Origin: Candidatus Parcubacteria bacterium | Lineage (GTDB): Bacteria; Patescibacteriota; Saccharimonadia; UBA4664; JBIOIQ01 | Assembly (NCBI GenBank): GCA_963718875.1 | Contig: OY970378.1 | Span: forward strand, 477,373 to 541,372 | DNA: 64,000 nt | Direction: 5' to 3' | Part shown: one piece after another, positions 2,137-54,037 of the stretch | Numbering within the stretch: the stretch's first letter is position 1 | How the letters are laid out: each line of letters begins with the position of its first letter | Translations under genes and position numbers: made by a program | Notes under the pieces: generated by a model | The model's database searches: none | Told to the model about the DNA's origin: nothing | Seen by the model: only the letters and a program-made list of their open reading frames with translations

Positions 2137-2842
2137 AACCAGGTGAGGTGATCTGGTAGTCCGCAACTCGGCGGATGATTTGACTGTGGGGGTAGCTACG
2201 TGCAGTGCAGATCCAGTAAGGCTGTGATTTTAAGGCGAGCGTCCGTCAGGATCATACGACTTAGAGAGGAGCTTGATGCTATCCGGCGTGCGATTCGGGA
2301 TGTTCACCCTGGTCTCAAGATGGAAGATCTGGAGGGAATGAGTGGCAGTGAGCTACTTGAGCTTTGCGCTCTGGGCTTGATGGGTGAGCCCAGTTCACTC
2401 CGAACGGTTTATCCGGGTTGCGACCAGGAGGACTTTTCGATCACAGCTACTCGGCTCGCATGACCGCTCGCAGGGGTGGCCTTGTGCTGGTGCGAGTTGA
2501 AGGAGCGAAGGGCATTGGTTTCACGTTCCGAACCCTTGTTCCTGGCATCTGCCCGACCGACCGCATCAAGCCGGTGAGTGCACCGAGCGGGAAGCAGAAG
2601 TGGCGGCCGTGAAAGGTCAAGTCACGCTCCAGCAGGTGCGAGATCTCAGGGAAGGGCTGGTGGCGGCACTTGAGGCTGCCTTTCCAGGTTCGATGTTCTG
2701 CCACCTTTCCCTCAAAGAGCTCGCTCTTCTGGAATACGGGGACATTGACTGGCATCAGTACGTTTCCAGTCCATAAAGCATCAACGGATGCAGTCCCGCC
2801 ACCCCTGGGCTACCAAGCTCGGGGGTGGCGGGTTTCGCTTTT
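2137..2842 (+). ncRNA. G+C-rich ~700-nt transcription unit of unknown nature (structured RNA, long HIT leader or decayed foreign gene)
   Basis: Bounded by the promoter at 2101-2130 and the terminator at 2795-2842; only short overlapping ORFs in several frames and on both strands; composition visibly richer in G+C than the flanks. Confidence 0.35.
2795..2842 (+). terminator. Intrinsic terminator
   Basis: CCCGCCACCCC (2795-2805) pairs with GGGGTGGCGGG (2822-2832), followed by TTTCGCTTTT. Confidence 0.75.
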
Positions 2843-2861
2843 AATGAGTTATTATTGGGTT

Positions 2862-3212
2862 ATGAATGATTGTTTATTTTGTTCGATTGCCAATGGCGAT
2901 GTTGAAAAGTTGGTGTGGAGTAATGATGTGGCAGCGGCTTTTAATGATATTAACCCCAAGGCACCTGTACACATCCTGGTGGTGCCCAAGCAACATATTG
3001 AAAATCTCGATGAACTAGACGATCCGGGGCTCGCCGGTAAGCTTTTGATGGCAGTAAGGGAAGTGGCCGTGCAGGCGGGGGTAAAAGGGGCGTATCGCGT
3101 GCATTTGAATAACGGAGAAGCGGCTGGACAGGTTATTCCGCATCTGCATTGGCATATATTGGCGAGAAGTTCTGTAAATGAGTTGGATAAATTACGGGAT
3201 CAAGGGTTGTAA
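2862..3212 (+). CDS. HIT-family (histidine triad) nucleotide hydrolase
   Basis: MNDCLFCSIANGD start and histidine triad HLHWHIL near the C-terminus; upstream part of ORF 2670..3212 overlaps the terminator, so ATG 2862 is preferred. Confidence 0.85.
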   Translation: MNDCLFCSIANGDVEKLVWSNDVAAAFNDINPKAPVHILVVPKQHIENLDELDDPGLAGKLLMAVREVAVQAGVKGAYRVHLNNGEAAGQVIPHLHWHILARSSVNELDKLRDQGL

Positions 3213-3232
3213 GCTCAAAACGATCGTTTTTA

Positions 3233-3261
3233 TTGACCTTATGTGGATTCTAGCTTAGTAT
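3233..3261 (+). promoter_or_regulatory. Sigma70-type promoter
   Basis: TTGACC 3233-3238, 17-nt spacer, TAGTAT 3256-3261. Confidence 0.55.
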
Positions 3262-3267
3262 ATTTCT

Positions 3268-3606
3268 TGCTTTACAACTCAACCGAACCAGGGGGTCTTC
3301 GCTGTGTCAGGCAGAATCGACCGGCCAAGAAGCGGCAAGCATGCGGCGCACGATTCTACGAGGCATTACCGCAACTGGAGAGCTCTTCCCGATCAGGGTT
3401 CGGAAGCATCGACAGCTTCTGAGCTACAGAGTGGAGGTTCTTCGTCAACACCGGCGGTCCGTATTGACCGGAGGCGGTCTCTGAGCGCACTTCTGTCACC
3501 GCAACAGCTTCGTCGGCTTTCGTCGTAACCAACAACAGCCTGGGTTCTCGAGCTTTTGCCACCTGGCCTGCACGAAGTTGTGTGGGTCAGGTGGCTGTTC
3601 TTTTTT
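3268..3606 (+). ncRNA. G+C-rich ~340-nt candidate structured RNA, unclassified
   Basis: Promoter at 3233-3261; terminator GCCACCTG (3558-3565) / CAGGTGGC (3588-3595) plus T6 at 3601-3606; local hairpins (AGAATCG..CGATTCT, GAAGC..GCTTC) and a long-range GAACCAGG/CCTGGGTTC pairing; ORFs in both strands are Arg/Ser-rich and look like junk. Confidence 0.4.
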
Positions 3607-3705
3607 AGGTTGATTGAACGCATGTTTTGTTGTAAAATGCTTTAGTCGTAAGAGCATTGTCTCTTGGAAGCCATATAATAACTAATATGGCTTTATATCA
3701 CACTT

Positions 3706-3936
3706 TTGAAGGAGGTGATTGTATTGTTGCAAGTAGTCCGCAAGGATGAAAAAGAGTCTCTAGAAAATCTAATTCGCCGCTTTAATAAAAAAGTTCAGCA
3801 ATCGGGAATTCTAGGTATAGCTCGTCGTAAAAAATATTTTGAGAAGCCTTTAAGTAAGCGTGAACAGCGCGAAATTGCCATTCGCAAATCTGCCCGTAAG
3901 GAGCTTAAAGCTAAACAATATTTGGGTGTAAAATAA
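3706..3936 (+). CDS. rpsU: 30S ribosomal protein S21
   Basis: Basic 70-76 aa protein ..ESLENLIRRFNKKVQQSGI..; GGAGG at 3711-3715 suggests the true start is TTG 3724/3727 rather than 3706. Confidence 0.85.
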   Translation: MKEVIVLLQVVRKDEKESLENLIRRFNKKVQQSGILGIARRKKYFEKPLSKREQREIAIRKSARKELKAKQYLGVK

Positions 3937-4379
3937 TGTCATTATTTTCGCAAATTGAATCCGATCTCGTAACGGCTATGAAGGAGCATAATGAAGCTCG
4001 CACGGCCGTTTTGCGCTTGCTAAAAAATGCGCTCAAGAACGAAGAAATTAAGTTGCGCCGTGAACTTACGCCCGAGGAGTCATTAAAAATACTCCAGCGC
4101 GAATCAAAGCAGCGCCGTGATTCAATTACGGCTTATGAACAAGGAGGTAGGGTGGATTTGGCTGATGAAGAAAAGGCCGAACTTGTAGTAATATCGTCGT
4201 ATTTGCCCACCCTAATGAGTGAAGAAGAATTGAATACAATTATTGCTCAAGTAGTAAACGAAACCGGTGCACAGAGCATGAATCAAATGGGTGAGGTGAT
4301 TGGTAAGGTTATGGCTATAACGGCCGGCAAAGCCGAGGGTGGAACTGTATCACGCCTGGTAAAGCAAAAACTTGGCTAG
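3936..4379 (+). CDS. yqeY: GatB/YqeY domain protein
   Basis: 147 aa, typical YqeY start (..DLVTAMKEHNEARTAVLRLLKNALKNEEI..); rpsU-yqeY adjacency as in Firmicutes. Confidence 0.8.
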   Translation: MSLFSQIESDLVTAMKEHNEARTAVLRLLKNALKNEEIKLRRELTPEESLKILQRESKQRRDSITAYEQGGRVDLADEEKAELVVISSYLPTLMSEEELNTIIAQVVNETGAQSMNQMGEVIGKVMAITAGKAEGGTVSRLVKQKLG

Positions 4380-4857
4380 TTTAGAGCTTATTGTCGTGGG
4401 CGAAATTCCTGCTGCACTTGAATTAACGCCTACCTATGTAGTTATAAAACTGCTTAATGAAATAGCAGCCGAACGGCATCTAAGCGGGGTAATTAATCTC
4501 AAGCTAGTTGACGACAAGACTATACAAGCATTAAATGATACATATAGCGGTAATGATTACGCTACTGATGTATTAACTTTTAGCTATATTGAAAGTATGG
4601 AAAGTAAAAACCAAGTGCTAAATCATGAACCAGATGAACTGGGGGATATGCTAATAAGCATCGAGACGGCTCAGCGACAGGCGGATGTGGCCGGTACAAC
4701 TTTAGCCGATGAGCTGGCTACCCTGGTTTTACATGGAGTGTTGCATATATTTGGGTATGACCATGCTGAACCTAGAGATAGAGAGGCTATGGATTTACTC
4801 CAATCAGAGTTGCTCCAGCAAGCTAACGTAACTTATAGGAATTTTAATTGGGCCTAA
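4372..4857 (+). CDS. ybeY: rRNA maturation endoribonuclease YbeY
   Basis: Metal-binding motif HGVLHIFGYDH; TTG start overlapping the upstream stop. Confidence 0.85.
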   Translation: MASLELIVVGEIPAALELTPTYVVIKLLNEIAAERHLSGVINLKLVDDKTIQALNDTYSGNDYATDVLTFSYIESMESKNQVLNHEPDELGDMLISIETAQRQADVAGTTLADELATLVLHGVLHIFGYDHAEPRDREAMDLLQSELLQQANVTYRNFNWA

Positions 4858-5234
4858 GTCGTTTAGTTAAAGGCTTTAAGTATGCTTTTATAGGCTTGGG
4901 GAATATTTTGCGCACCGAGCAGAATGCTCGGGTTCATTTGGCGATTGCCGTAATTGTGCTGGCGTTAGGTTTTGCGTTTGGAATAAGTCCGGCCGAGCTA
5001 GCAGCTATATTCTTTGCTATTATTATTGTTTTTGTAGCGGAAGTTCTTAATACGGCCATTGAAAAAACACTTGATTTAATTGAGCCTGAGCACAACGGTA
5101 AGGTGGCAATTATCAAGGACATGGCAGCTGGTGCTGTTCTTGTGGCAGCTGGTGGAGCGATTATTATTGGTGCAGTTATCTTTTGGCCATATATACTGCC
5201 ATTTACGTTTGGAGCATCATGGCTGCCCCTGTAA
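4848..5234 (+). CDS. dgkA: Diacylglycerol/undecaprenol kinase (DagK family)
   Basis: 128 aa, three TM helices, E..LNTAIE motif; conserved ybeY-dgkA order. Confidence 0.8.
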   Translation: MGLSRLVKGFKYAFIGLGNILRTEQNARVHLAIAVIVLALGFAFGISPAELAAIFFAIIIVFVAEVLNTAIEKTLDLIEPEHNGKVAIIKDMAAGAVLVAAGGAIIIGAVIFWPYILPFTFGASWLPL

Positions 5235-10335: not shown

Positions 10336-10412
10336 GGGGACTAGGTGTCTGGGCTATGACACGTCTTGCATTATCGGTGCAAGGAAGGAGGTTCAAATCC
10401 TCAAGTCTCCAC
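10336..10412 (+). tRNA. tRNA-like gene: Ala-type acceptor stem, canonical D and T loops, aberrant anticodon arm
   Basis: Acceptor GGGGACT/AGTCTCC with G3:U70 and discriminator A; D stem GTGT/ACAC with a GG-containing loop; T loop GGTTCAAATCC; anticodon arm is a 7-bp helix with loop TTATCGG (central triplet ATC) and only a 2-nt variable region; CCA not encoded. Confidence 0.5.
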
Positions 10413-38182: not shown

Positions 38183-38665
38183 ATGGTAATAGCCATGCAA
38201 GCCATGAAAAAAGAATTTTATTTAACCGACGAAGGAGTTGTAAGACTCCGAGAAGAGTTGGCTGATTTAGTGCATAACAAGCGGGTAGAAATTGCAGCCC
38301 GTCTCAAAGAAGCAAAAGAATATGGGGATTTGAGTGAAAACATCCAGTGGGACGACGCCAAAGATCAACAGGCTTTTATAGAGGGTCGTATTGCTGAAAT
38401 TGAAAATATTCTTAAGCACTCTAGTAGAATTGAACATCCCAAAGGTTCTAGTGTGGTGGCTCTAGGGTCAACAGTGCACCTTGAGCTAGAAGATGGTGTT
38501 CAACGTTACGTTATTGTAGGCTCGACTGAAGCCAATCCGGAACAGGGAAGAATTTCAAATGAGTCTCCTATAGGCCAAGCGCTATTGGGTAAGAAACCTG
38601 GTGAAGAAGTTGAAGTCGAAGTGCCTTCTGGAACTCTTAAATACAAAATCACCAAAATCGAATAA
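38183..38665 (+). CDS. greA: Transcription elongation factor GreA
   Basis: Coiled-coil N-domain (..EYGDLSEN..) and C-terminal FKBP-like domain; three in-frame ATGs, so the start is uncertain. Confidence 0.9.
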   Translation: MVIAMQAMKKEFYLTDEGVVRLREELADLVHNKRVEIAARLKEAKEYGDLSENIQWDDAKDQQAFIEGRIAEIENILKHSSRIEHPKGSSVVALGSTVHLELEDGVQRYVIVGSTEANPEQGRISNESPIGQALLGKKPGEEVEVEVPSGTLKYKITKIE

Positions 38666-38795
38666 AACTTAATCTTTTGCGCACTTCGGCGTCGTAGCCT
38701 CTAGTTCGCATTCGGCGTATGTCTAATACGCCTCTTTCGTCAGCTGACGGATACGATCTTCGGTTCCTCCTTGAATTGCATCAAAACCTTAAGTT
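38666..38795. repeat. Imperfect palindromic intergenic repeat, divergent family copy R3
   Basis: Outer arms AACTTAA / TTAAGTT, apical hairpin GGCGTATGTCTAATACGCC, ..CACTTCGGCG.. resembles R2/R5. Confidence 0.5.
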
Positions 38796-38891
38796 TCAAT
38801 AACAATGAATAAATAAAGTATTCAAGCATAAGCGTAATGAAAGGACCCCTACGAGGGTCCTTTCTCGTTATAGGGAGAATGGTTTGCTACA

Positions 38892-41237
38892 ATGGCTAGT
38901 ATGAATTTAGAAAGTAATTATTGGCTCAATTTGGCAGTTCGCCAAATTGTACAAAAATACCCGGAAGGTGATTTGGTAGTTTCAAGTGGGATTTCCCCTT
39001 CGGCGTCCTATCATATAGGCCATTTCCGCGAAACACTAACTGCTGATGCTTTAGCTTGGGGTTTGAGGCAGGCTGGGCGCAAAGTTATCCATAAGCACGT
39101 GGTAGATAATTTTGATCCATTGCGTCGCCGCTATGACTTCCTGCCGGAAGAGTATGAGCAGTATGTGGGTTGGCCAATCTGTCTATTGCCCGACCCGTTC
39201 GAGAAATGTATTGATGAGCACAAAACCTACGCCGAGCATTTTTACCGCGAATTTGAGAAGTATGCAGTCGCTATGGGAGTTGGTGGGGAGAAAGAGGAAA
39301 AAGCCGGAAATTTTGTAGCCATCCGCAGTTATGAGCAACTTTACGCCAGTGGCAAGATGGCTCCTCAGATAGAAAAGGTTGTAGATAAAAGTGATCTTAT
39401 TCGTCAAATTTTCAAAGAAGTCTCGAATCGCGATTTGCGTGAGGGGTGGTTGCCGTTACAGCTACTGGGACCAAATAAAAGCTTTAATGAGCTCAAGTTT
39501 AAATCTATCGATGTAGCTGCAAAGATAATAGTTGGAGTTGACGAAAGTGAACACGAGCATAGCCTAGATTACACACGAGGCGAAGTTAAGTTAAACTGGC
39601 GACTAGATTGGCCTGCTCGGTGGCAGATACTTGGTGTCCAAGTGGAGCCATTTGGGGTTCAGGAGCATGGTGCTGCCGGAAGCTCGTATGATACGGGAGT
39701 GGCTTTTAGCGAAAAAGTTTTTGGCTATCCTGCTCCAATGCCAGCCGCGCCTTACGGCAATATTCACCTGCTGGGTGATAATACTAAGATGAGCTCGTCT
39801 AAAGGTAATTTAATCACTCCAGAGCAGGCACTTCAAATAATGCCGGCCGAAATACTCCGATATTTCATTGTCCGAAGCAAGCCTGAGCGGACACTCTATT
39901 TTGATTCCGGGGTTGGACTATTCAACTTAATCGATGAGTTTTCGCAGATTCAAGAGGCCTTATCGAAAGACTTGACACATGAATTTGCTGATGCTTATTA
40001 CTTTGCTACCGCCAATACTACAGCAGAAAAGGTGATCTCAAGTGTGCCGTTTAACCACTTGGTAACGGCATATCAGACCGCTAGAGGTGATTTGAGTCAG
40101 GTCGTGGATATCCTGGCTAGAACAGGCTGGAAGCCGGCTGATAAGGCCGAGGAAGAGGTCTTGGGACGAGAAATCGTCTTTGTCAGTTCCTGGCTGGAGC
40201 GATATGCTCCGGACAGTATAAAGTTTCAAATCCAGCCAAGTTTGCCCAAGGTGCAGTTATCTGATACTCAGAGAGCTTTTTTAGGCCTGTTAGCGGCAGC
40301 GCTAGATAAAGAGGTAATAGCGGATGGTCAAAAAATGCACAATGAAATTTATACGGCTTCTGAAGGGGCTAAAATCAAACCGGCAGAGGCTTTTGAGGCA
40401 CTATATTTGGTGATTCTGAATAAAAAAGCCGGCCCTAAAGCGGGGTGGTTTTTAGCAAGTCTTGAGCACGAGTGGCTGGTGAAGCGATTACGGGAGGCTA
40501 CAGAACAGACTTCGGTGCAATCCGAGGCGGAACCGGTGCAAGATTTGGTGGCTCAGCTTGATCAAGGTAGGCAATTTAAGGTTGAGAGTGATTTGTTGAA
40601 GGCTTTTCCAAATACAGCCATTGGTTATTGCGTGGCGGATATTGAGGTAGAGGGTCGCTCTGATTATGATTTCGAAGGATTAAAATTGGCGCTGGAAATG
40701 GCGGGAGTGACGCTGGATAATATAGCTAATCAACCAGAAATAAAAGCTTGGCGTGAGGCTTACAAGATTTTTGGCGTAAAACCAAGTGATTATCGCAGCT
40801 CGGTCGAGGCATTAGTGAGGCGGGTGTTGGCTGATAAACCTTGGCATGTAAACAGTATTGTAGATACGTATAACGCTGTCTCGGTTAAGTATGTGGTGGC
40901 TATGGGTGCTATGGATTTGGATGAGGCTCATGGGGATATTAATCTTAGATTTGGCAAAGATGGTGAACTGGCTAATTTGATGGGGGTGGAGGAGCCTGTT
41001 GTTGTGAGCTCAAGACAGCCGGTCTATGCTGATGATGAGCAGATTATTACATGGTTGTGGAATTACCGTGACGCGGCAGCTACAGCTGTTACAGCTAAGA
41101 CTAAAAAGGCGGTTTTCTTTATCGATTCGGTGCGAGGGCGAGAGGCTGTTGAGACGGCTTTGAAAGAGCTAGTCAGAGAGCTGGAGCAGAAGCATAGAGC
41201 AAATGTGTTGACTCAAGGGATTCTATCGGCTAGTTAA
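38892..41237 (+). CDS. lysK: Class-I lysyl-tRNA synthetase fused to a C-terminal B3/4 (COG3382-like) domain
   Basis: HIGH (SYHIGH), KMSKS variant KMSSSKG; C-terminal ~220 aa with AWREAYKIFGVKPSDYRSSVEALVRRVL..VNSIVDTYNAVS typical of stand-alone B3/4 proteins; start may be the leaderless ATG 38901. Confidence 0.8.
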   Translation: MASMNLESNYWLNLAVRQIVQKYPEGDLVVSSGISPSASYHIGHFRETLTADALAWGLRQAGRKVIHKHVVDNFDPLRRRYDFLPEEYEQYVGWPICLLPDPFEKCIDEHKTYAEHFYREFEKYAVAMGVGGEKEEKAGNFVAIRSYEQLYASGKMAPQIEKVVDKSDLIRQIFKEVSNRDLREGWLPLQLLGPNKSFNELKFKSIDVAAKIIVGVDESEHEHSLDYTRGEVKLNWRLDWPARWQILGVQVEPFGVQEHGAAGSSYDTGVAFSEKVFGYPAPMPAAPYGNIHLLGDNTKMSSSKGNLITPEQALQIMPAEILRYFIVRSKPERTLYFDSGVGLFNLIDEFSQIQEALSKDLTHEFADAYYFATANTTAEKVISSVPFNHLVTAYQTARGDLSQVVDILARTGWKPADKAEEEVLGREIVFVSSWLERYAPDSIKFQIQPSLPKVQLSDTQRAFLGLLAAALDKEVIADGQKMHNEIYTASEGAKIKPAEAFEALYLVILNKKAGPKAGWFLASLEHEWLVKRLREATEQTSVQSEAEPVQDLVAQLDQGRQFKVESDLLKAFPNTAIGYCVADIEVEGRSDYDFEGLKLALEMAGVTLDNIANQPEIKAWREAYKIFGVKPSDYRSSVEALVRRVLADKPWHVNSIVDTYNAVSVKYVVAMGAMDLDEAHGDINLRFGKDGELANLMGVEEPVVVSSRQPVYADDEQIITWLWNYRDAAATAVTAKTKKAVFFIDSVRGREAVETALKELVRELEQKHRANVLTQGILSAS

Positions 41238-41315
41238 ACTTGTGAAGACACTTTTTTTGCGCTAAATTAAAGCCAGCGCCGGACCAGCCGTCGCCTGTTT
41301 CGTGGAGGATGAATC

Positions 41316-41723
41316 TTGAGCCCACTTGAGGTTGCCGCTCTGAAGAGCCTGAATAAGGCTCGCAGAGCATGGGGATTGCCTTCGTGGCCGGCGCTGGTTC
41401 CGGCTACACCGTCCGACCCCTGTGGATGCGAGTTCTGGAAGGGGCTGGTCGACGGAGACCCATTGGTCTCGGTCGGAGCAGATCACATCATTGCTGGCCG
41501 AGATGCTGCTCGAGTCATCTATGCCGCCTTTGGCAGACTTGATGACGAGGGGAGAAGATGGGAGGTTCTGAGGGGAGATCTGGTCAAGATCAGGATGAGA
41601 GATACTCTCGCGAGCTTCGTGGAGGCCTTCGACGAGCGCCGTTTTCCTCATCTCATCGACGACGAGGCGGACGAGGCGTACCGGGTTAAGAGGGCGGCCG
41701 AGCAGACATTGGTTTCTGCCTAA
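41316..41723 (+). CDS. G+C-rich foreign-looking hypothetical 135-aa protein
   Basis: GGAGG 7 nt upstream of TTG 41316; acidic C-terminus; composition differs from flanking lysK/serS; the overlapping minus-strand ORF is judged an artefact. Confidence 0.5.
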   Translation: MSPLEVAALKSLNKARRAWGLPSWPALVPATPSDPCGCEFWKGLVDGDPLVSVGADHIIAGRDAARVIYAAFGRLDDEGRRWEVLRGDLVKIRMRDTLASFVEAFDERRFPHLIDDEADEAYRVKRAAEQTLVSA

Positions 41724-41738
41724 TTGCTGCGCAACATG

Positions 41739-41780
41739 ATCCACCGTCGGTGGGGGGTTATCCCTCCACCGACGGTGGAT
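41739..41780. terminator. Strong G+C-rich palindrome / terminator
   Basis: ATCCACCGTCGGTGG..CCACCGACGGTGGAT, 15-bp perfect arms. Confidence 0.7.
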
Positions 41781-41830
41781 TTAAGGTCACGGATTTATTA
41801 TTTAGCTACAAAGACGTATAATAGTAGTCA

Positions 41831-43141
41831 ATGATTGACATTAAACATCTACGAGATCAGCCGAAACTTTATAAAGACTCCGCGCACAGTCGCGGAGTAG
41901 TTGTTGATATCGATAAACTGCTTGAGCTCGATAAGCGACGAACTGAGCTTATTGGCCAGATTGAGGCTTTGCGGGCTAAGCTGAACGTCAAAGGTAAGCC
42001 GAGCGAGGAAGAGCTCAAAGAGCTGCAAGAATTCAAAGCTGAGCTAGGCTCACTCGATAAAGAGTTCAGTAAAATTGACTCTCAGTTCCAGAAGTTGCTT
42101 TATTCAGTGCCAAACCTCCATTCGTCCGATACTCCGATAGGGAAAGATGAGTCAGAAAATGTCGTAGTAAGGCAAGTGGGAGAAATTCCTGTTTTTGATT
42201 TTAGCCCAAAAGAGCATTGGGAGCTTGGTGCTGATTTGGACGTTATAGATAACGAACGTGCTGCCGAAGTTGCAGGCGGCCGGTTTACCTACCTTAAAGG
42301 TGGGTTGGTTAAACTACAGTTTGCACTAATCAGCTTTATTACTCAAAATCTGACCGATCAGGCTACCATTGCGGAGATTATTTCGGATGCGGGTATACCA
42401 GTTGATCCAACGCCCTTTGTGCCGGTCGTACCACCTGTAATGATCCGCAGAAGTATACTGGAGCGTATGGCACGGCTTGACCCCATTGAGGATCGGTATA
42501 GGGTAATTCCTGGAGATGCCAAAACTTTGCCAGATGAATTCGACAACGACCTTTTTTTGGTTGGAAGTGCCGAACATACGTTAGGGCCACTTCATATGGA
42601 TGAAGCCATCTCAGAGTCAAGGCTGCCGCTTCGATATTTAGGCTACTCAACGGCTTTTAGGGGTGAGGCTGGAAGCTATGGAAAAGATGTAAGAGGGATC
42701 TTGCGCGTCCATCAGTTTGATAAACTGGAGATGGAATCGTTTAGCACTCCTGATACATCAATTGCTGAGCAAGACTTTTTTGTAGCCGTCCAAGAGTTTA
42801 TTCTTCAGTCTTTAGAGTTACCTTATCAGGTTGTGGCCATTTCTACTGGCGACATGGGTGATCCCGATTATCGCCAAGTCGATATCGAGACCTGGATGCC
42901 TGGTCAAAATAAGTATCGCGAAACGCATACGGCCGATTTAATGACGGATTATCAATCGAGACGATTGAGAATAAAACTTAAGCGAGAAGATGGTCAAACT
43001 GAATTTGTCCACATGAATGACGCTACAGCATGTGCTGTTGGGCGTCTACTCATAGCTATAATGGAAAACTATCAAACAGCTGAGGGGAAAATTAAGGTCC
43101 CCAAAGTTTTGCAACCATACTATGGAGGTGAGTTTTTATAA
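41831..43141 (+). CDS. serS: Seryl-tRNA synthetase
   Basis: N-terminal coiled-coil arm, class II motifs (..FRGEAGSYGKDVRGILRVHQF..); TATAAT 8 nt before the ATG. Confidence 0.9.
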   Translation: MIDIKHLRDQPKLYKDSAHSRGVVVDIDKLLELDKRRTELIGQIEALRAKLNVKGKPSEEELKELQEFKAELGSLDKEFSKIDSQFQKLLYSVPNLHSSDTPIGKDESENVVVRQVGEIPVFDFSPKEHWELGADLDVIDNERAAEVAGGRFTYLKGGLVKLQFALISFITQNLTDQATIAEIISDAGIPVDPTPFVPVVPPVMIRRSILERMARLDPIEDRYRVIPGDAKTLPDEFDNDLFLVGSAEHTLGPLHMDEAISESRLPLRYLGYSTAFRGEAGSYGKDVRGILRVHQFDKLEMESFSTPDTSIAEQDFFVAVQEFILQSLELPYQVVAISTGDMGDPDYRQVDIETWMPGQNKYRETHTADLMTDYQSRRLRIKLKREDGQTEFVHMNDATACAVGRLLIAIMENYQTAEGKIKVPKVLQPYYGGEFL

Positions 43142-43185
43142 TAAACCAGCACGTAGCTAATAGTAATTAAATCAGGAGGTATGCA

Positions 43186-43557
43186 ATGATTGAGGTACAG
43201 GTTAGTGGTAATAATTACGAGTTGAACGATAAAATTACCGATTACGTGCAGGAAAAAATTGGCAACCTAGAAAAATACTTACCTAAACAAGTTCGAAATG
43301 GCATTAAAGGTAGTGTAACCTTAACCACTGACGTTTCAGGAAAAGAAGGTAATCAATGCGTTTGTGAAGCTATTATTCCGGTAAAAGGAGCGGTGATTGA
43401 GGCTAAGGAAGCCACAATGAATATGTTTGCGGCCGTTGATATTTGCGCTGCTAAGTTAAAAGCTCAAATGGTTAAGTACAAAGACAAAAACAGTCCGCGT
43501 CAAAACCGAGCTAAGGTTTTTGTGGCTAAATTGACCAGGCGTTATGTCGAGGAATAA
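43186..43557 (+). CDS. hpf: Ribosome hibernation factor (HPF/RaiA, short form)
   Basis: 123 aa, sigma-54-modulation-protein-like fold pattern; AGGAGG RBS. Confidence 0.75.
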   Translation: MIEVQVSGNNYELNDKITDYVQEKIGNLEKYLPKQVRNGIKGSVTLTTDVSGKEGNQCVCEAIIPVKGAVIEAKEATMNMFAAVDICAAKLKAQMVKYKDKNSPRQNRAKVFVAKLTRRYVEE

Positions 43558-47069: not shown

Positions 47070-47362
47070 AGGAATATAGCGTCTATATCACAACTAATAA
47101 CACAGGCACACTTTATGTGGGTATGACTGGTGACCTGCCACATCGCATGGACCAACATAAGGCGAAAACATTTCCGGGGTTTACCAACAAGTACTGGGTG
47201 GATAAATTGGTATACTTCGAGATGACTTCTGATCCGATCGCTGCAATCTCACGAGAGAAACAACTCAAAGGCTGGCGACGATCGAAAAAGATTAGCTTAA
47301 TAGAATCGATGAATCCTGGCTGGCTAGATCTGTCCATAGATACTTCGGCAGGCTCAGCATGA
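47066..47362 (+). CDS. GIY-YIG nuclease-superfamily protein (UPF0213-like)
   Basis: YSVYITTN..GTLYVGMT..R...H motif. Confidence 0.8.
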   Translation: MKEYSVYITTNNTGTLYVGMTGDLPHRMDQHKAKTFPGFTNKYWVDKLVYFEMTSDPIAAISREKQLKGWRRSKKISLIESMNPGWLDLSIDTSAGSA

Positions 47363-47418
47363 CAGGTAAAAAATCTGATATCAAAGAAGGCGTCGTTGGA
47401 GTAAGGGCCGGAGGTATC

Positions 47419-49995
47419 ATGACAGGTCAAAAAGTGGCTATTTTGGGTTTTGGCGTTGAAGGAAAGGCGGCGTATGAATATTGGAATGGCCAAGGGGCTG
47501 AAATTACAATTTGTGATGCCAAAACCGATTTGAAGCTTCCTGGTGGTGTCAAAAGCAATCTTGGGCCAGATTATCTACAAGACCTTGGTTCGTATGACCT
47601 AGTGGTACGCTCCCCAGGAGTGCCATTTTACCAGGTAAAAACGAGTGTGCCTATTACCAGTGTTACCAGGGAGTTCATGGCCAAATGCCCGGCACAGATT
47701 ATCGGGGTTACAGGAACTAAGGGAAAGGGCACAACCGCTACGCTGATTGCAAAGATATTGGAAGCTGATGGGCATAAAGTGTGGTTGGGGGGTAATATTG
47801 GTACGCCAGCTCTTGATTTCCTGGCTTCCGTACAGCCAACAGATTACGTGGTACTAGAGTTATCAAGCTTCCAGCTCGAAGATGTTACACAAAGCCCTCG
47901 GGTAGGAGTTTGCCTGATGATTGCTCCAGATCATCTGGACCACCATCGCCATATGGAGGAGTATATTCAGGCCAAGGGCAACATTTTTCGCTATCAAACC
48001 AAACAAGATGTGGCGGTCTATCATGGTGGCCAGCCTGAAACCGTCAGGTTGGGGCAGCTTTCTGTGGGGAATCACATTCCATACTGTACCCCCGGAGGGG
48101 CTTATATCCGGGACGAGCAGGTGTGGTTTCGCGACCAATCAATTTGCCCTGTGGCGTCGGTTGGATTGTTGGGGAGGCATAATCTGGAAAATGTCTGTGC
48201 GGCGGTGTCGGTTACTTATGGCCTTGTGCGCTCAAAAGAGAGCGTTGCTAGGATGGTCGCTGAGTTCAAAGGCCTGCCGCACCGGCTAGAGGAAGTCGGT
48301 GAGATAAATGGGGTGCGGTTTATCAACGACTCGTTTGCTGCCAATCCGGTTTCGGCAGTGGCGGCATTAAAGGCCTTGTCTGGGCCAAAGGTGGTGATAT
48401 TAGGTGGGTTTGACCGCCATATAGATCAATCTGAGCTTATCCAAACGGTTAAGCATGAGAACGTTCGTCAGGTGGTTTTGGTGGGGCAAACTGCTAAGAA
48501 CCTAGCGGCTTTACTTAAAAGCGAAAACTTTAGCAATTATGAGATGGGCGGGAAAACCATGGCCGAGATTGTTGAGGCTGCCAGTAACCAGGCTAAGCCC
48601 GGTGATACGGTGCTACTTTCTCCCGGAAGCCCAAGTTTTGATATGTTTCAAAATTTTAGTGATAGGGGGAACAAATTTCGGGACGCGGTTAAGCTCCTTG
48701 AGCGACAGCCTGGGGAGTACAATACGTTTATTTTTGAAGGTTACGGCTTTGACCCTGACATAAAGCAACTTGAGCTCAAGTACAGTTTTGATGGTTTGGT
48801 GCAATTTGTCGAGACTTTTAGCTTTGATTTTGAGTTTGCGCCAGACTATGACCAAGCTGCTTTAGAGCGAGCTTGTTTTGGCTTATTTATGATGGCGGGA
48901 GTGTCTTACTATAAGGCGGGTTTACCATCTGAAATTAAGATTCGTCAAGGCAGGCTGTCTCAATCTCAAGCTGATTTTTTTCAAAAGACCTACAGGTTGG
49001 GTTTAGGTGAGTTTTGTTATCGTAACAACTTACCCCTGGTAAAGCTCATGCTCCCAGTTAGCTTAGAAGTGGAGGAAGTAAGTGATATTAATGGTCTTTA
49101 TGGCAGTTTGGTGCCGGTTGGTGGCGGTAAGGACTCGCTAGTAACGATTGAGCTGCTCAGGGAAGCGGGTGAGGATATGGTTACCTGGATGGTCAATCAT
49201 AACGACCAGGTCGAGCCCCTAATAGCTAAAACCGCCCTGCCTCATATGTCGGTAACTAGACAGGTTGCCCCTGAACTGATTAGGCTGAATCAACAAGGGG
49301 CTTTAAACGGTCATGTGCCAATTTCGGCCATTCTTAACTTTGCGGGGGTAATTTCGGCCATCTTATCGGGTAGAGCAAGCCTGGTGTTGTCCAATGAGTG
49401 GTCGGCCGGAGAAGGTAATACCGAATACGAGGGAGTAATGGTCAATCATCAGTATTCAAAAAGCTTTGAGTTTGAGCAGGATTTTCAAGAATATGTAAAA
49501 TCATCGATTTCACCTTCAATTGACGTGTTTTCACTGCTGCGACCGTTGAGTGAGCTCAAAATTGCTGAAACGTTTTGTACTAAACACTTTGATAAATACG
49601 CGGAGGTGTTTTCCTCGTGTAATCGAAATTTTCACCTGGAGGATCATGCTGCTCTGTATTGGTGTGGAGAGTGTCCAAAATGCGCCTTTGTTTTTTTAAT
49701 ATTTTCGCCGTTTTTATCAAAACAAGCCTTAGTCGGCTTGTTTGAGGGTAAAAACTTGTTTGCTTCTGAAGAGCTTGAGCCTACATTTGACGAACTGCTG
49801 GGGCTCTCAGGCCACAAACCCTTTGAGTGTGTAGGTGAAATAAAGGAATGCCGGCAGGCGTTATTAATGGCTAAGGCCAAGGGAGAATACCCTGAACTTG
49901 CTCGCTACAGCTTTCCCGACCCTGAATTTGATTATAAAGAGAAACACTCAAACAATATTCCAGATCAGTTTAAGTCCTTGATTGATAAATTATGA
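47419..49995 (+). CDS. murD: MurD (UDP-MurNAc-L-Ala:Glu ligase) fused to a ~420-aa PP-loop-like domain
   Basis: N-terminal Mur ligase (GVTGTKGKGTT); from about 48715 a second domain with VPVGGGKDSLV (PP-loop-like) and CGECPKC; ORF opens at 47359. Confidence 0.8.
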   Translation: MTGQKVAILGFGVEGKAAYEYWNGQGAEITICDAKTDLKLPGGVKSNLGPDYLQDLGSYDLVVRSPGVPFYQVKTSVPITSVTREFMAKCPAQIIGVTGTKGKGTTATLIAKILEADGHKVWLGGNIGTPALDFLASVQPTDYVVLELSSFQLEDVTQSPRVGVCLMIAPDHLDHHRHMEEYIQAKGNIFRYQTKQDVAVYHGGQPETVRLGQLSVGNHIPYCTPGGAYIRDEQVWFRDQSICPVASVGLLGRHNLENVCAAVSVTYGLVRSKESVARMVAEFKGLPHRLEEVGEINGVRFINDSFAANPVSAVAALKALSGPKVVILGGFDRHIDQSELIQTVKHENVRQVVLVGQTAKNLAALLKSENFSNYEMGGKTMAEIVEAASNQAKPGDTVLLSPGSPSFDMFQNFSDRGNKFRDAVKLLERQPGEYNTFIFEGYGFDPDIKQLELKYSFDGLVQFVETFSFDFEFAPDYDQAALERACFGLFMMAGVSYYKAGLPSEIKIRQGRLSQSQADFFQKTYRLGLGEFCYRNNLPLVKLMLPVSLEVEEVSDINGLYGSLVPVGGGKDSLVTIELLREAGEDMVTWMVNHNDQVEPLIAKTALPHMSVTRQVAPELIRLNQQGALNGHVPISAILNFAGVISAILSGRASLVLSNEWSAGEGNTEYEGVMVNHQYSKSFEFEQDFQEYVKSSISPSIDVFSLLRPLSELKIAETFCTKHFDKYAEVFSSCNRNFHLEDHAALYWCGECPKCAFVFLIFSPFLSKQALVGLFEGKNLFASEELEPTFDELLGLSGHKPFECVGEIKECRQALLMAKAKGEYPELARYSFPDPEFDYKEKHSNNIPDQFKSLIDKL

Positions 49996-51336: not shown

Positions 51337-51403
51337 TGCAAGCAGTTATTGTTTCGTTAACTAGGGGAGACCTATGATGTTAGCGAAACGTTATCTGCTT
51401 GCA
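51337..51403 (+). promoter_or_regulatory. 25-nt inverted repeat upstream of the G+C-rich island
   Basis: TGCAAGCAGTTATTGTTTCGTTAAC (51337-51361) vs reverse complement of GTTAGCGAAACGTTATCTGCTTGCA (51379-51403); four mismatches. Confidence 0.5.
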
Positions 51404-51512
51404 TGAAACTGTGCAAGCGAGGATTCGACACTTAGTCGAATTCAGTTGCTCTACCGAACATACAGAAACCACAGACCAGGGTGAGAACTCTGGCAGAGCA
51501 AAGGAAAAGACC

Positions 51513-52448
51513 ATGTCCGACCAGACCGGAGGACCCGGTACCACCGCCCCACCCCGCCGACCCACGCTCCAGGAGCTCGCCGACCAGGCGAGAGCCACGA
51601 TCGAGGAGCAGGCTCGACAGGCGAATGACCTCCAGGGTCAGCGCTCCGCCATCAACGCGATCAGCGGTCGAGTGGCGCAGCACGACGACGCCATCGCTGA
51701 CCTCCGGGACGCTTCGGCCCAGCAGGCCGACGCCGTGGACCGCCTCGGCCAGCGCACGCTGGTGGTCGAGGGACGCACGGACTCGTTGGAGGACTTGGCT
51801 CGCGCCAACGCCGCCGGCGTGGCCGGGCTGACCGCCAACATGGCTGACCTGACCACCAACGTCAACACGCTGGCCACCACGGTGGGCCAGCACGACACCC
51901 GTCTCGACGCCGTCGAGGACGCCGTGACGCCGGCCGCTATGCGGACGGTCGTCACCGAGGTGGTCGAGGAGCGCATGCGCGCTGTTCGGTTCAACTGGGT
52001 GGCCTTCGCCGTGGTGGCGATCGTGGGCTTCATCATCGACCTGTTGGTGTTCTCCGAGATGGGGAGCTTCAACAGCGCCGAGGCGCCGAAGCTCTCCAAG
52101 CACCTCACGGACGTCATGCACACGCAGAACTTCCTGGCCGTCATGCTCGTTGTCCTGGCCCTCGCCATACTCATCGCCCTCATCGTTCCGGTGGTCGGGC
52201 AGGACGAGCGTCCCAGGCAGGACCGCCAGCCCAGGCCGCCTCGGCAGCCCGGATCCGGCGGTGGTTTCATGGCCGGTCTTCGCAACGTTTGGAGGAGGGG
52301 TCGCGGTACGCCCGCTGCCACTGCGCCCATCCCGGCCAACTCCACGCCGGTGGCGACGACGAACCCGTCGGCCTCGTCCAACGCGCCCACTCAGGTGCTG
52401 CCGGCGGTGCCGACGTCCGGTCCGACGCCCTCATCGGGCAACCCGTAG
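51513..52448 (+). CDS. High-G+C island gene A: coiled-coil protein with two TM helices and a Pro-rich tail
   Basis: AAGGAAAAG before ATG 51513; third codon positions almost all G/C; Ala/Asp/Leu periodic N-terminal ~160 aa, TM helices FNWVAFAVVAIVGFIIDLLVF and FLAVMLVVLALAILIALIVPVV, then RPRQDRQPRPPRQPGSGGG.. Confidence 0.7.
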   Translation: MSDQTGGPGTTAPPRRPTLQELADQARATIEEQARQANDLQGQRSAINAISGRVAQHDDAIADLRDASAQQADAVDRLGQRTLVVEGRTDSLEDLARANAAGVAGLTANMADLTTNVNTLATTVGQHDTRLDAVEDAVTPAAMRTVVTEVVEERMRAVRFNWVAFAVVAIVGFIIDLLVFSEMGSFNSAEAPKLSKHLTDVMHTQNFLAVMLVVLALAILIALIVPVVGQDERPRQDRQPRPPRQPGSGGGFMAGLRNVWRRGRGTPAATAPIPANSTPVATTNPSASSNAPTQVLPAVPTSGPTPSSGNP

Positions 52449-52517
52449 TCCACGCGGTTCTTCAAGTGGATTGTCCCAATTCAAATACCTCCTAGCGTCA
52501 AGCAAAGAGGGAACAAC

Positions 52518-52547
52518 CCTCTGTCCGCCCTTCGGGGCGGACAGAGG
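52518..52547 (+). terminator. Hairpin terminator after island gene A
   Basis: CCTCTGTCCGCCC-TTCG-GGGCGGACAGAGG. Confidence 0.7.
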
Positions 52548-52647
52548 AGCAACTTTTACTTCCATGGATAGTAGTCCGCGTGAGAAGCAATTCTTACTCG
52601 GTTTCTGTTCATGGTGCAATCGGCACCCAAACGATAAGGAGGGTGCC

Positions 52648-53826
52648 ATGAGCACCAGAAGAGGTCCTGTTCTGATCATCGTGTGTCTGCTGATGGCAGC
52701 GGGGGCTTTGCTGTTCAAGTACGGCAACGGCCCAACGCCGGCAGTGGCACAGACGCCGCCCACGGTGCCCGTTTCGGACGTCTGCAAGGACGTCCCGGGC
52801 AACGTGCCGAGGTGGTTTGCCAAGGAGACCGACGGCAACAAGTTCGGTCCGGCGGCTCCGTTTGACCTTGGTCCCGCCAGGAAGGCTCAGCACGAGGTCC
52901 TGTGCCTCGACCCGGCCAACCTGGTGATCACCCAGGAGACCATCGACGGGAAGTTCAGCAGTCCGGCAAACCGGGCTGCCCGGACTCGCGTTCTCGTTGC
53001 CAACCCCACTGCGCGGTTGGCAGCGGTGGCCTATGTGCAGGCAGAGTTGGCCAAGGCCAAGGAGGTTCGGCTGGAGGTCCACACGGGACCCTACCAGACC
53101 TTCTACATGACCACCGACGGCGACGTGCCGGAGGTGTTCCAGTCTGCAGGGAGCTTCACCGAGGCACGGCACGTTCTCGTGTACGACTTCGGTAACGGTC
53201 GCACGGTCAACTTCGTACTGGAGTGCAACTTCCAGGGGGAGTTCCCCGGGCCGGTCAAGAACGTGCCGGTGGCAACGCCGGGCACTGTGCCGGCGCTGGT
53301 TCAGCCGGGGCCCACCAGCCCGCCGCCGACGACGTGCCAGTCGACCAACACCTGTTCGACCGTGACCAGCCCACCGCCCGTGTGCTGCGGACCGCCCCCG
53401 ACGACGTGTCAGGTCAACTGCGGTCCGCCCCCGACGACGTGTCAGGTCAACTGCGGTCCGCCGCCGACGACGTGTCAGGTCAACTGCGGTCCGCCGCCGA
53501 CGACGTGTCAGGTCAACTGCGGTCCGCCGCCGACCGTTTGCACACACAAGTGCGCGGGAGAGGACGTTGCGGTCAGTCCGAGTCTGGATCCTGTCGTTTC
53601 GGGACTGGCTGCGGGCAATGCCGCACCCACTGCGGTGGCAACACCGGTCGTGACGGCGCCTCCGGCGCCGCCTCCGCCCGTGACCACAGCCACGCCACCC
53701 GTGACGGCTCTGCCGTCCTCCGATGGCGTGGCAGCTCCACCGCCTGTAGTGGCTCCACCGTACGTGGCGCCCGATGCGGGCACTCCGTCCAACCCGACGA
53801 CGGGAACCATTCCGCCGCCGCCGTAG
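52648..53826 (+). CDS. High-G+C island gene B: secreted or anchored protein with CGPPPTTCQVN tandem repeats and a Pro/Ala/Val-rich tail
   Basis: AAGGAGGG RBS 5 nt before ATG 52648; N-terminal signal/anchor MSTRRGPVLIIVCLLMAAGALLF; ~220-aa globular region; 11-aa Cys/Pro repeats; ORF track start 52150 overlaps gene A and the terminator. Confidence 0.7.
   Translation: MSTRRGPVLIIVCLLMAAGALLFKYGNGPTPAVAQTPPTVPVSDVCKDVPGNVPRWFAKETDGNKFGPAAPFDLGPARKAQHEVLCLDPANLVITQETIDGKFSSPANRAARTRVLVANPTARLAAVAYVQAELAKAKEVRLEVHTGPYQTFYMTTDGDVPEVFQSAGSFTEARHVLVYDFGNGRTVNFVLECNFQGEFPGPVKNVPVATPGTVPALVQPGPTSPPPTTCQSTNTCSTVTSPPPVCCGPPPTTCQVNCGPPPTTCQVNCGPPPTTCQVNCGPPPTTCQVNCGPPPTVCTHKCAGEDVAVSPSLDPVVSGLAAGNAAPTAVATPVVTAPPAPPPPVTTATPPVTALPSSDGVAAPPPVVAPPYVAPDAGTPSNPTTGTIPPPP
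53386..53535 (+). repeat. 33-bp tandem repeat, about 4.5 copies, in frame within gene B
   Basis: TGCGGTCCGCC(C/G)CCGACGACGTGTCAGGTCAAC repeated head to tail with one or two substitutions. Confidence 0.95.
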
Positions 53827-54037
53827 GACACCACTTCTGCCCATTCGGGCAGGGGTCTACCCCAGGGTCTGGGGTGGTGCGCAAGCGCCACCCCGCCCTG
53901 TGGGTATACATATTCTTAATGATTTTGGATTATTCGATTGCTCCAAGGGTTAGTGCCCTTTAACATTTAGCGTCCAACTTAACTTGTAGATCATATTAAA
54001 TTCATTTTAACGTTCATTATTTAAAAGGAGAGCACAT

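Follow-up and report, generated by a model that had tools for sequence, protein, structure and literature searches.

Introduction

Lysyl-tRNA synthetase (LysRS) is a textbook aminoacyl-tRNA synthetase that exists in two unrelated classes, and LysRS of either class is absent from the synthetases listed with an editing domain in a review of the field (PMC11415595). Here we analyse a 64,000-nucleotide stretch of the genome of a Candidatus Parcubacteria bacterium of the Saccharimonadia (contig OY970378.1 of assembly GCA_963718875.1, positions 477,373 to 541,372; 'the window' hereafter means this whole stretch), in which one gene encodes a 781-residue protein composed of a class I LysRS (LysRS1) and, at its C-terminus, a B3/4 domain of the family of the deacylase CtdA. 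We think it fairly probable that this domain would act as a post-transfer deacylase on tRNA(Lys).

Four groups of described systems come close to this protein. The first is CtdA, an experimentally established canavanyl-tRNA(Arg) deacylase (PMC10018355, PMC12449066), which resembles the appended domain in sequence (E ~1e-12 to 1e-14) and has in common with it the pocket asparagine (N105, equivalent to N661 in the window protein), G116 (equivalent to G672) and a WN.R motif. CtdA is free-standing, however, whereas the window domain is fused, its partner is LysRS and not ArgRS, and it has M, T, D and F in place of the pocket residues E118, C166, Q173 and I189. The second is the B3/B4 domain of PheRS beta, which hydrolyses Tyr- and m-Tyr-tRNA(Phe) and, like the putative editing domain of the window protein, would act in cis within a synthetase, with the same water-positioning asparagine. 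Here the sequence similarity is marginal and the insert helices differ; furthermore, the Tyr-recognition residues H265 and G318 (E. coli) correspond to G672 and D727 in the window domain, leaving only the asparagine (N254) in common. The published equivalences place PheRS H265 at CtdA G116 and G318 at Q173 (PMC12449066).

The third comprises AlaRS/AlaX, ProRS INS/YbaK/ProXp and ThrRS, in which the editing module is also found either fused to a synthetase or free-standing. A direct parallel is a relative of our locus, described below, in which a class II LysRS (LysRS2) fused to an AlaX-like domain is followed by a separate B3/4 gene; the difference is that the module studied here comes from the B3/4 deacylase family and that its partner is a synthetase not known for post-transfer editing. 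The fourth is class I LysRS itself, represented by the structure 1irx and by the ~520-residue LysRS1 of other Saccharimonadia. The window protein has a typical core, 70% identical to that of an unfused relative at the same locus, but it carries ~245 extra C-terminal residues, and described LysRS1 enzymes lack a separate hydrolytic domain.

We found no paper on a LysRS that carries a domain of B3/4 or CtdA type, and such fusions are mentioned neither in the CtdA papers nor in a paper on deacylase-guided discovery, although literature coverage is incomplete and an earlier description is possible; the author of a preliminary description of this DNA, made from the sequence alone, had not known the architecture as a described one either. 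The fused sequences are themselves public and are annotated simply as 'lysine--tRNA ligase'. What is new here is thus an editing-type module of a recently characterised family, with a distinct pocket, on a synthetase not known to carry one.

A class I LysRS continued by a CtdA-type domain

The gene and its parts, in window coordinates, are the following.

38892..41237 (including the stop codon), + strand: complete LysRS-B3/4 fusion gene, 781 aa, a single uninterrupted open reading frame (ORF)
38919..40496, + strand: class I LysRS core with Rossmann catalytic and helical anticodon-binding domains, residues 10-535 (TIGR00467, PF01921, Foldseek)
39012..39023, + strand: HIGH signature motif, residues 41-44 (from the translation)
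39786..39800, + strand: KMSSS, a KMSKS-type signature motif, residues 299-303 (from the translation)
40497..40547, + strand: linker from the LysRS core to the appended domain, residues 536-552 (dip in the predicted local distance difference test score, pLDDT; unfused relatives stop near here)
40548..41234, + strand: CtdA-like B3/4 domain that corresponds to an entire stand-alone protein, residues 553-781

The preliminary description had assigned the N-terminal part to class I LysRS on its HIGH and KMSSS motifs, and the profiles agree. The NCBIfam equivalog for class I LysRS, lysS_arch (TIGR00467), matched residues 10-535 with 355.7 bits against a cut-off of 147.55, and Pfam tRNA-synt_1f (PF01921) matched residues 11-363 (E 4.5e-78, 263 bits against a threshold of 27). 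The LysRS1 fold is present as well, with a Foldseek match of the model to P. horikoshii LysRS1 (1irx_A) at E 1.5e-39 and a target-normalised TM of 0.86. By profile, signature motifs and fold the core is therefore a class I LysRS, with a predicted tRNA-charging activity. The full-length AlphaFold2 model of the fusion has a mean pLDDT of 92.8 and a predicted TM score (pTM) of 0.77; beyond residue 138 the pLDDT falls below 50 only at residues 543-545, inside the linker, and the appended domain is folded over residues 553-781.

In this appended part Pfam B3_4 (PF03483) matched residues 619-749 (E 4.1e-23), well above the gathering threshold (82.3 against 29.3 bits), and the strings from which a B3/4 domain had first been proposed, AWREAY (619-624), FGVKPSDYRSSVEALVRR (627-644) and VDTYNAVS (657-664), are all found in the translation. 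The segment first singled out, 40570-41237, corresponds to residues ~560-781 and is essentially the folded domain. Its likening to stand-alone COG3382-type proteins can now be made more precise: that family has since been characterised, and its members are the canavanyl-tRNA(Arg) deacylases of the CtdA family, for which the structures 9f7e and 9mkl have been solved (PMC10018355, PMC12449066). Since the best matches in a sequence search of the PDB with the domain were these CtdA structures (9mkl, E 6.5e-14; 9f7e, E 4e-12) and the similarity to PheRS beta was marginal (phmmer against 4p71, E 0.22), the last ~220 residues represent a complete CtdA-type protein. Indeed, the family-specific helical insert that sets CtdA apart from the PheRS editing domain (PMC12449066) is present, within a full-length CtdA fold, while the pheT profile TIGR00472 scored 20.2 bits against a cut-off of 402.65, below PheRS-beta membership. 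Of the kinship with the PheRS-beta editing site suggested at the outset, the shared asparagine stands, but the domain is much nearer to CtdA. Likewise, of the two roles first suggested for a fusion in cis, tRNA binding or proofreading, the relation to CtdA favours proofreading over plain tRNA binding.

The join between the two parts recurs well beyond this contig. A protein identical to ours (P0001) is found in public collections on a 1.19-Mb contig, and the same two-part architecture, at 42-53% full-length identity, is seen in P0002, P0009, P0019, P0028, P0029 and P0091, drawn from NCBI, JGI, ENA and Logan assemblies that are independent of one another. GTDB genomes labelled Saccharimonadia/Saccharibacteria (L005, L006, L008) and several metagenome contigs (L017, L019, L020) yielded more such single ORFs, 761-821 codons long from stop to stop; another fusion (L018) is cut at its 5' end, and a 5'-truncated contig binned as Doudnabacteria (L007) has the same LysRS-B3/4 join. 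Over all assemblies found, the single-ORF fusions are 42-56% identical to the window protein. The fusion loci have in common the gene order MreB-MreC-(MreD)-PBP2-GreA-LysRS-small ORF-SerRS-HPF-SecA, and the LysRS1 fusion is present in at least ten separate Saccharimonadia assemblies that keep the order GreA-LysRS-SerRS-HPF. The two parts do not differ in composition: GC content and GC content at third codon positions (GC3) are 0.460 and 0.437 in the LysRS core and 0.465 and 0.436 in the appended part. A recent foreign insertion of the B3/4 domain was also considered and was rejected on these values, which give no compositional signal.

The aminoacyl pocket

The aminoacyl pocket of Salmonella enterica CtdA consists of N105, G116, E118, C166, Q173 and I189, and takes Arg as well as canavanine; the enzyme is inactivated by N105A, G116H/W and Q173G, and C166 modulates both activity and specificity (PMC12449066). 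Using that numbering, we placed the equivalent residues of the window domain through a HMMER alignment to 9mkl and an alignment of 163 sequences.

40872..40874, + strand: Asn661, equivalent to CtdA Asn105 and PheRS-beta Asn254, which positions the hydrolytic water; kept (alignment to 9mkl)
40905..40913, + strand: Gly672-Ala673-Met674; CtdA G116 corresponds to G672 (kept) and CtdA E118 to M674 (changed) (alignment)
41049..41072, + strand: T720, which corresponds to CtdA C166, and the WLWNYRD motif, in which D727 corresponds to CtdA Q173 (CtdA motif WNWRQ); both changed (alignment)
41118..41120, + strand: Phe743, equivalent to the CtdA pocket residue I189; changed (alignment)

Within the Saccharimonadia clade, N661, G672 and the motif WLWN.RD do not vary. 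In a set of 96 near relatives, the N661 position is Asn in 83 and the D727 position is occupied by nothing but D (59), E (26) or Q (11), while Met at the E118 position is confined to the Saccharimonadia clade (4 of the 96). Judged by its residues, the window domain is a CtdA homologue that looks catalytically competent; it is not a canavanine-type orthologue, because the canavanine-pocket residues E118, C166, Q173 (or E) and I189 are replaced.

In the 163-sequence alignment the pocket pattern tracks the fusion partner. Domains fused to ArgRS keep the CtdA-like G-E-C-(E/Q), a pattern as expected for a putative editing of canavanine in cis, and LysRS-linked pockets read G-M-T/S-D in the Saccharimonadia clade and G/A/V-Y-C-D or G-D-C-E elsewhere.

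Fusions across the B3/4 family

An exhaustive HMMER search (E up to 1e-3) gave 2,408 family representatives, most of them stand-alone proteins of ~230 residues and many of them fused. Domain scans of the fused proteins identified the following architectures.

P0234; P0275/P0276: class I LysRS with B3/4 at the C-terminus
P0222: class I LysRS with B3/4 at the N-terminus
P0136, P0217: class II LysRS with B3/4 at the N-terminus
P0250, P0262: class II LysRS with B3/4 at the C-terminus
P0192, P0207, P0237, P0240, P0253: ArgRS with B3/4 at the N-terminus
P0129, P0130, P0132, P0143, P0149: B3/4 with C-terminal ankyrin repeats
P0151: B3/4 with an N-terminal ATP-grasp domain

A survey within the candidate phyla radiation (CPR) and in other lineages, suggested in the preliminary description, thus finds relatives joined to ArgRS and, at either end, to LysRS of both classes; the fusion architecture is wider than CPR and wider than class I LysRS. 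One of the proteins, P0276, is annotated 'lysine--tRNA ligase [Aggregatilineales]', an order that we take to belong to the Chloroflexota. LysRS-linked domains fall into at least five separate lineages of a neighbour-joining tree, which is rough, without support values and indicative only.

Several of these proteins deserve mention for themselves. The ArgRS proteins carry one or two N-terminal B3/4 domains with the pocket G-E-C-(E/Q) and, on that sequence pattern, are candidate cis-editing ArgRS against canavanine; ArgRS-B3/4 fusions are not mentioned in the CtdA literature examined. P0262 (HNT30143.1, 1072 aa) has an unusually elaborate C-terminal extension, in which the class II LysRS is followed by a PheT-like tRNA_bind domain, B3/4 and HD. 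The ankyrin-repeat and ATP-grasp proteins, one of the former from a Legionellales bacterium, carry the pocket G-Y-C/T-D in common with P0136; other LysRS-fused domains have it too, with A or V for the Gly. Finally, the 241-residue stand-alone B3/4 protein P0135 (L033:4001-4726) bears the JGI name 'lysyl-tRNA synthetase class 2' with no LysRS nearby in its neighbourhood, a name probably carried over from the annotation of a fused LysRS2-B3/4 protein.

Split forms next to LysRS

The strongest evidence for an association between the module and LysRS comes from loci in which the two are separate genes. In L002, which has the same gene order as the window, the module is a 231-residue gene that follows the class I LysRS gene, with a 66-codon ORF between them. 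In L001 (a contig of Logan SRR28521186), positions 2156-5144 are syntenic with window 38183-43557 (identity of 65% for GreA, 54% for PBP2 and 48% for SerRS), and the synthetase is a class II LysRS (NF001756, 477 bits, residues 4-492) that continues into an AlaX-like editing domain (residues 530-760) with both zinc motifs retained, HxxxH (HCAGH) and CxxxH (CGGTH). The B3/4 gene is separate there, encodes 228 residues that are 53% identical to the window domain and overlaps the stop codon of the synthetase by 14 nt. Since the B3/4 gene is still adjacent where a class II LysRS replaces LysRS1, the module stays with lysyl-tRNA synthesis. The LysRS-AlaX fusion of L001 also seems undescribed. If the B3/4 module deals with errors on tRNA(Lys), the AlaX-like domain would handle small mis-attached residues such as Ser, Ala and Thr, LysRS errors that ProXp-ST1/2 already clear in other bacteria (PMC7373986).

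Outside CPR, the nearest stand-alone relatives are those of the Synergistaceae, at ~40% identity to the window domain. In nine of ten contigs the Synergistaceae B3/4 gene lies directly upstream of a YbaK/ProX-type tRNA_edit gene (PF04073, 69.6 bits), and this pairing is another editing context for the B3/4 module. The pair was observed at L009:3965-5205 and in L010, L011, L016, L022-L024, L026 and L032.

Distribution and history in Saccharimonadia

Most LysRS1 homologues of the Saccharimonadia are unfused proteins of ~520 residues. In a neighbour-joining tree of the LysRS core, five fused proteins stand near the base, and P0001 and P0002 lie apart from them, nested among unfused proteins. This suggests that the fusion is old and has been lost repeatedly, or that the module has been transferred on occasion, a history that we propose tentatively because the tree is without support values. 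Substitutions in the core that track the fusion, as possible signs of relaxed specificity, were sought and rejected, since the differences follow phylogeny instead. Like CtdA, the module behaves as a niche-dependent accessory trait, which in some relatives is a separate gene.

Proposed function and its alternatives

Our reading builds on the observed architecture, family assignment, fold, conserved residues and recurrent linkage to LysRS. The gene would encode a working class I LysRS that carries, on a short flexible linker, a C-terminal aminoacyl-tRNA deacylase of the CtdA family. The core would charge tRNA(Lys) and, where a wrong amino acid had been attached, the 3' end of the tRNA would be passed in cis to the B3/4 pocket, or the product would be recaptured after release; the split forms imply that such action in trans is possible. 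A water positioned by Asn661 would then hydrolyse the ester bond, as in CtdA and in the PheRS-beta editing site, and Lys-tRNA(Lys) would be spared. Because the Asn and Gly are kept, Asp727 is acidic and four residues differ from the canavanine pocket, the likely substrate would be tRNA(Lys) bearing a longer or altered basic side chain. E. coli LysRS mischarges tRNA(Lys) with Arg, as well as Thr, Met, Cys, Leu, Ala and Ser, and does not deacylate Arg-, Thr- or Met-tRNA(Lys) (PMC5370406). Since this mischarging includes Arg, and the CtdA pocket accommodates Arg, arginine would be the first and most obvious candidate; canavanine, homoarginine and the lysine analogues thialysine, oxalysine and ornithine may be others. 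In favour of a role on tRNA(Lys), the module is linked to LysRS regardless of class (I or II), of terminus and of whether it is fused or a separate gene.

Several points weigh against this reading. Class I LysRS is generally held to be more selective than class II. Most Saccharimonadia, including the closest LysRS relative (P0003, 70% identity, same locus), are without the domain, so that the module can be dispensed with; nor do any substitutions in the LysRS core track its presence. Four of the six published CtdA pocket residues are replaced (E118M, C166T, Q173D, I189F), so that the activity of CtdA is not simply transferable to the window domain. That the domain is catalytic, that it acts on tRNA(Lys) and which amino acid it would edit are inferred, and the misacylation data cited above come from a class II LysRS (PMC5370406).

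An unlikely alternative is that the domain would be a non-catalytic RNA-binding module, by which a reduced-genome LysRS binds tRNA(Lys) more tightly or is tethered to other RNA or to the ribosome. B3/4-like folds that bind RNA without editing were indeed among the matches of the fold search, namely LRRC47 on pre-40S/40S ribosomes (6zxd_k, 8xp3_JC) and the C-terminal domain of TilS (3hj7); the Pfam description reads merely 'B3/4 domain', and there is variation at the CtdA position that corresponds to R244 of PheRS beta, a residue in contact with the tRNA backbone. However, the residues conserved in the clade (N661, G672, WLWN.RD) are those of the CtdA aminoacyl pocket and not a surface patch, and the module also occurs as a free-standing gene, both beside LysRS and beside other editing genes.

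That the domain would be an ordinary CtdA, hydrolysing canavanyl-tRNA(Arg) in trans and fused to LysRS for co-expression only, with no link to tRNA(Lys), seems to us quite unlikely. This explanation has in its favour that the CtdA activity is the sole one characterised in the family (PMC10018355, PMC12449066) and that CtdA works in trans on tRNA(Arg) with no help from a synthetase. Against this, the residues that govern activity and specificity in CtdA are the very ones replaced in the window domain, and the ArgRS-fused domains keep the CtdA pattern while the LysRS-linked ones do not. The association with LysRS recurs independently, with both classes and at both termini; furthermore, canavanine is a legume metabolite, and nothing ties it to the organism of the window.

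We regard as very unlikely a third explanation, in which the domain would perform some other deacylation, for instance of Lys on a wrong tRNA or of an aminoacyl ester, or would control the supply of Lys-tRNA(Lys) by cognate hydrolysis. Stand-alone deacylases often act on the products of unrelated synthetases (PMC11415595), and the ankyrin-repeat and ATP-grasp fusions point to wider roles for the family; but there is no positive evidence for such an activity here, a polypeptide that hydrolysed its own cognate product would run a futile cycle, and the repeated pairing with LysRS points to errors on tRNA(Lys). Lastly, although the split versions in L001 and L002 demonstrate that each part can have a gene of its own, an artefact (a frameshift, a chimeric assembly or a mis-joined gene pair) can be dismissed as practically negligible, given the continuous frame, the equal GC and GC3 across the junction and the recurrence of the single ORF in many independent assemblies from four sources at only 42-56% full-length identity, and the fusion, which the preliminary description had treated as possibly artefactual, is real.

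Returning to post-transfer editing of tRNA(Lys), the chances seem to us evenly balanced that the broader proposal also holds: that this is the first LysRS with a dedicated post-transfer editing domain, and that it represents a second branch of the CtdA/B3-4 family, directed at errors on tRNA(Lys) (arginine or a natural basic antimetabolite), which would have been recruited repeatedly and independently by LysRS1 and LysRS2, and by ArgRS in the canavanine-type form.

Other features of the window

Between LysRS and SerRS lies a spacer (41238-41830) with a GC content of 0.556 against 0.46 for the window, which contains overlapping ORFs of 135 aa (+ strand) and 160 aa (- strand). The + ORF has no Pfam match and is weakly similar (23-30% identity) to the small ORF that L003 and L004 carry at the corresponding place. 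The adjacent SerRS (41831-43141, 436 aa) is 48% identical to that of L001 (436 aa) against 43% to that of L004 (407 aa), and GreA and HPF are closer to their L004 counterparts (81% and 69%); the LysRS-SerRS locus may have a mixed history.

Further along, 51400-53950 is a compositional island, with a GC content of 0.64 in the 52-54 kb bin against the window mean of 0.46; it holds long overlapping ORFs on both strands, gave no Pfam match, and has a 33-bp unit repeated 4.5 times in tandem at 53385-53534. An 878-residue protein encoded at 47359-49995 is a MurD-like Mur ligase over its first ~420 residues, and its other ~450 are without a Pfam match. At 10336-10412 ARAGORN called a tRNA-Asp whose ATC anticodon, at position 38, is unusual, a doubtful call; Rfam gave no match at gathering score anywhere in the window, including this tRNA.

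Significance

Characterisation of the CtdA family dates from 2023-2025 and is confined to canavanine; the proteins described here broaden the family, and their partner-specific pockets (ArgRS versus LysRS) amount to testable predictions of specificity. A CtdA-type module that joined LysRS of either class repeatedly would point to a problem of fidelity at lysine codons that is real and recurs, and it offers a concrete protein with which to study this problem. For CPR, it would mean that a genome-reduced episymbiont lineage keeps or discards a proofreading module, which could reflect exposure to amino acid analogues from hosts or neighbours.

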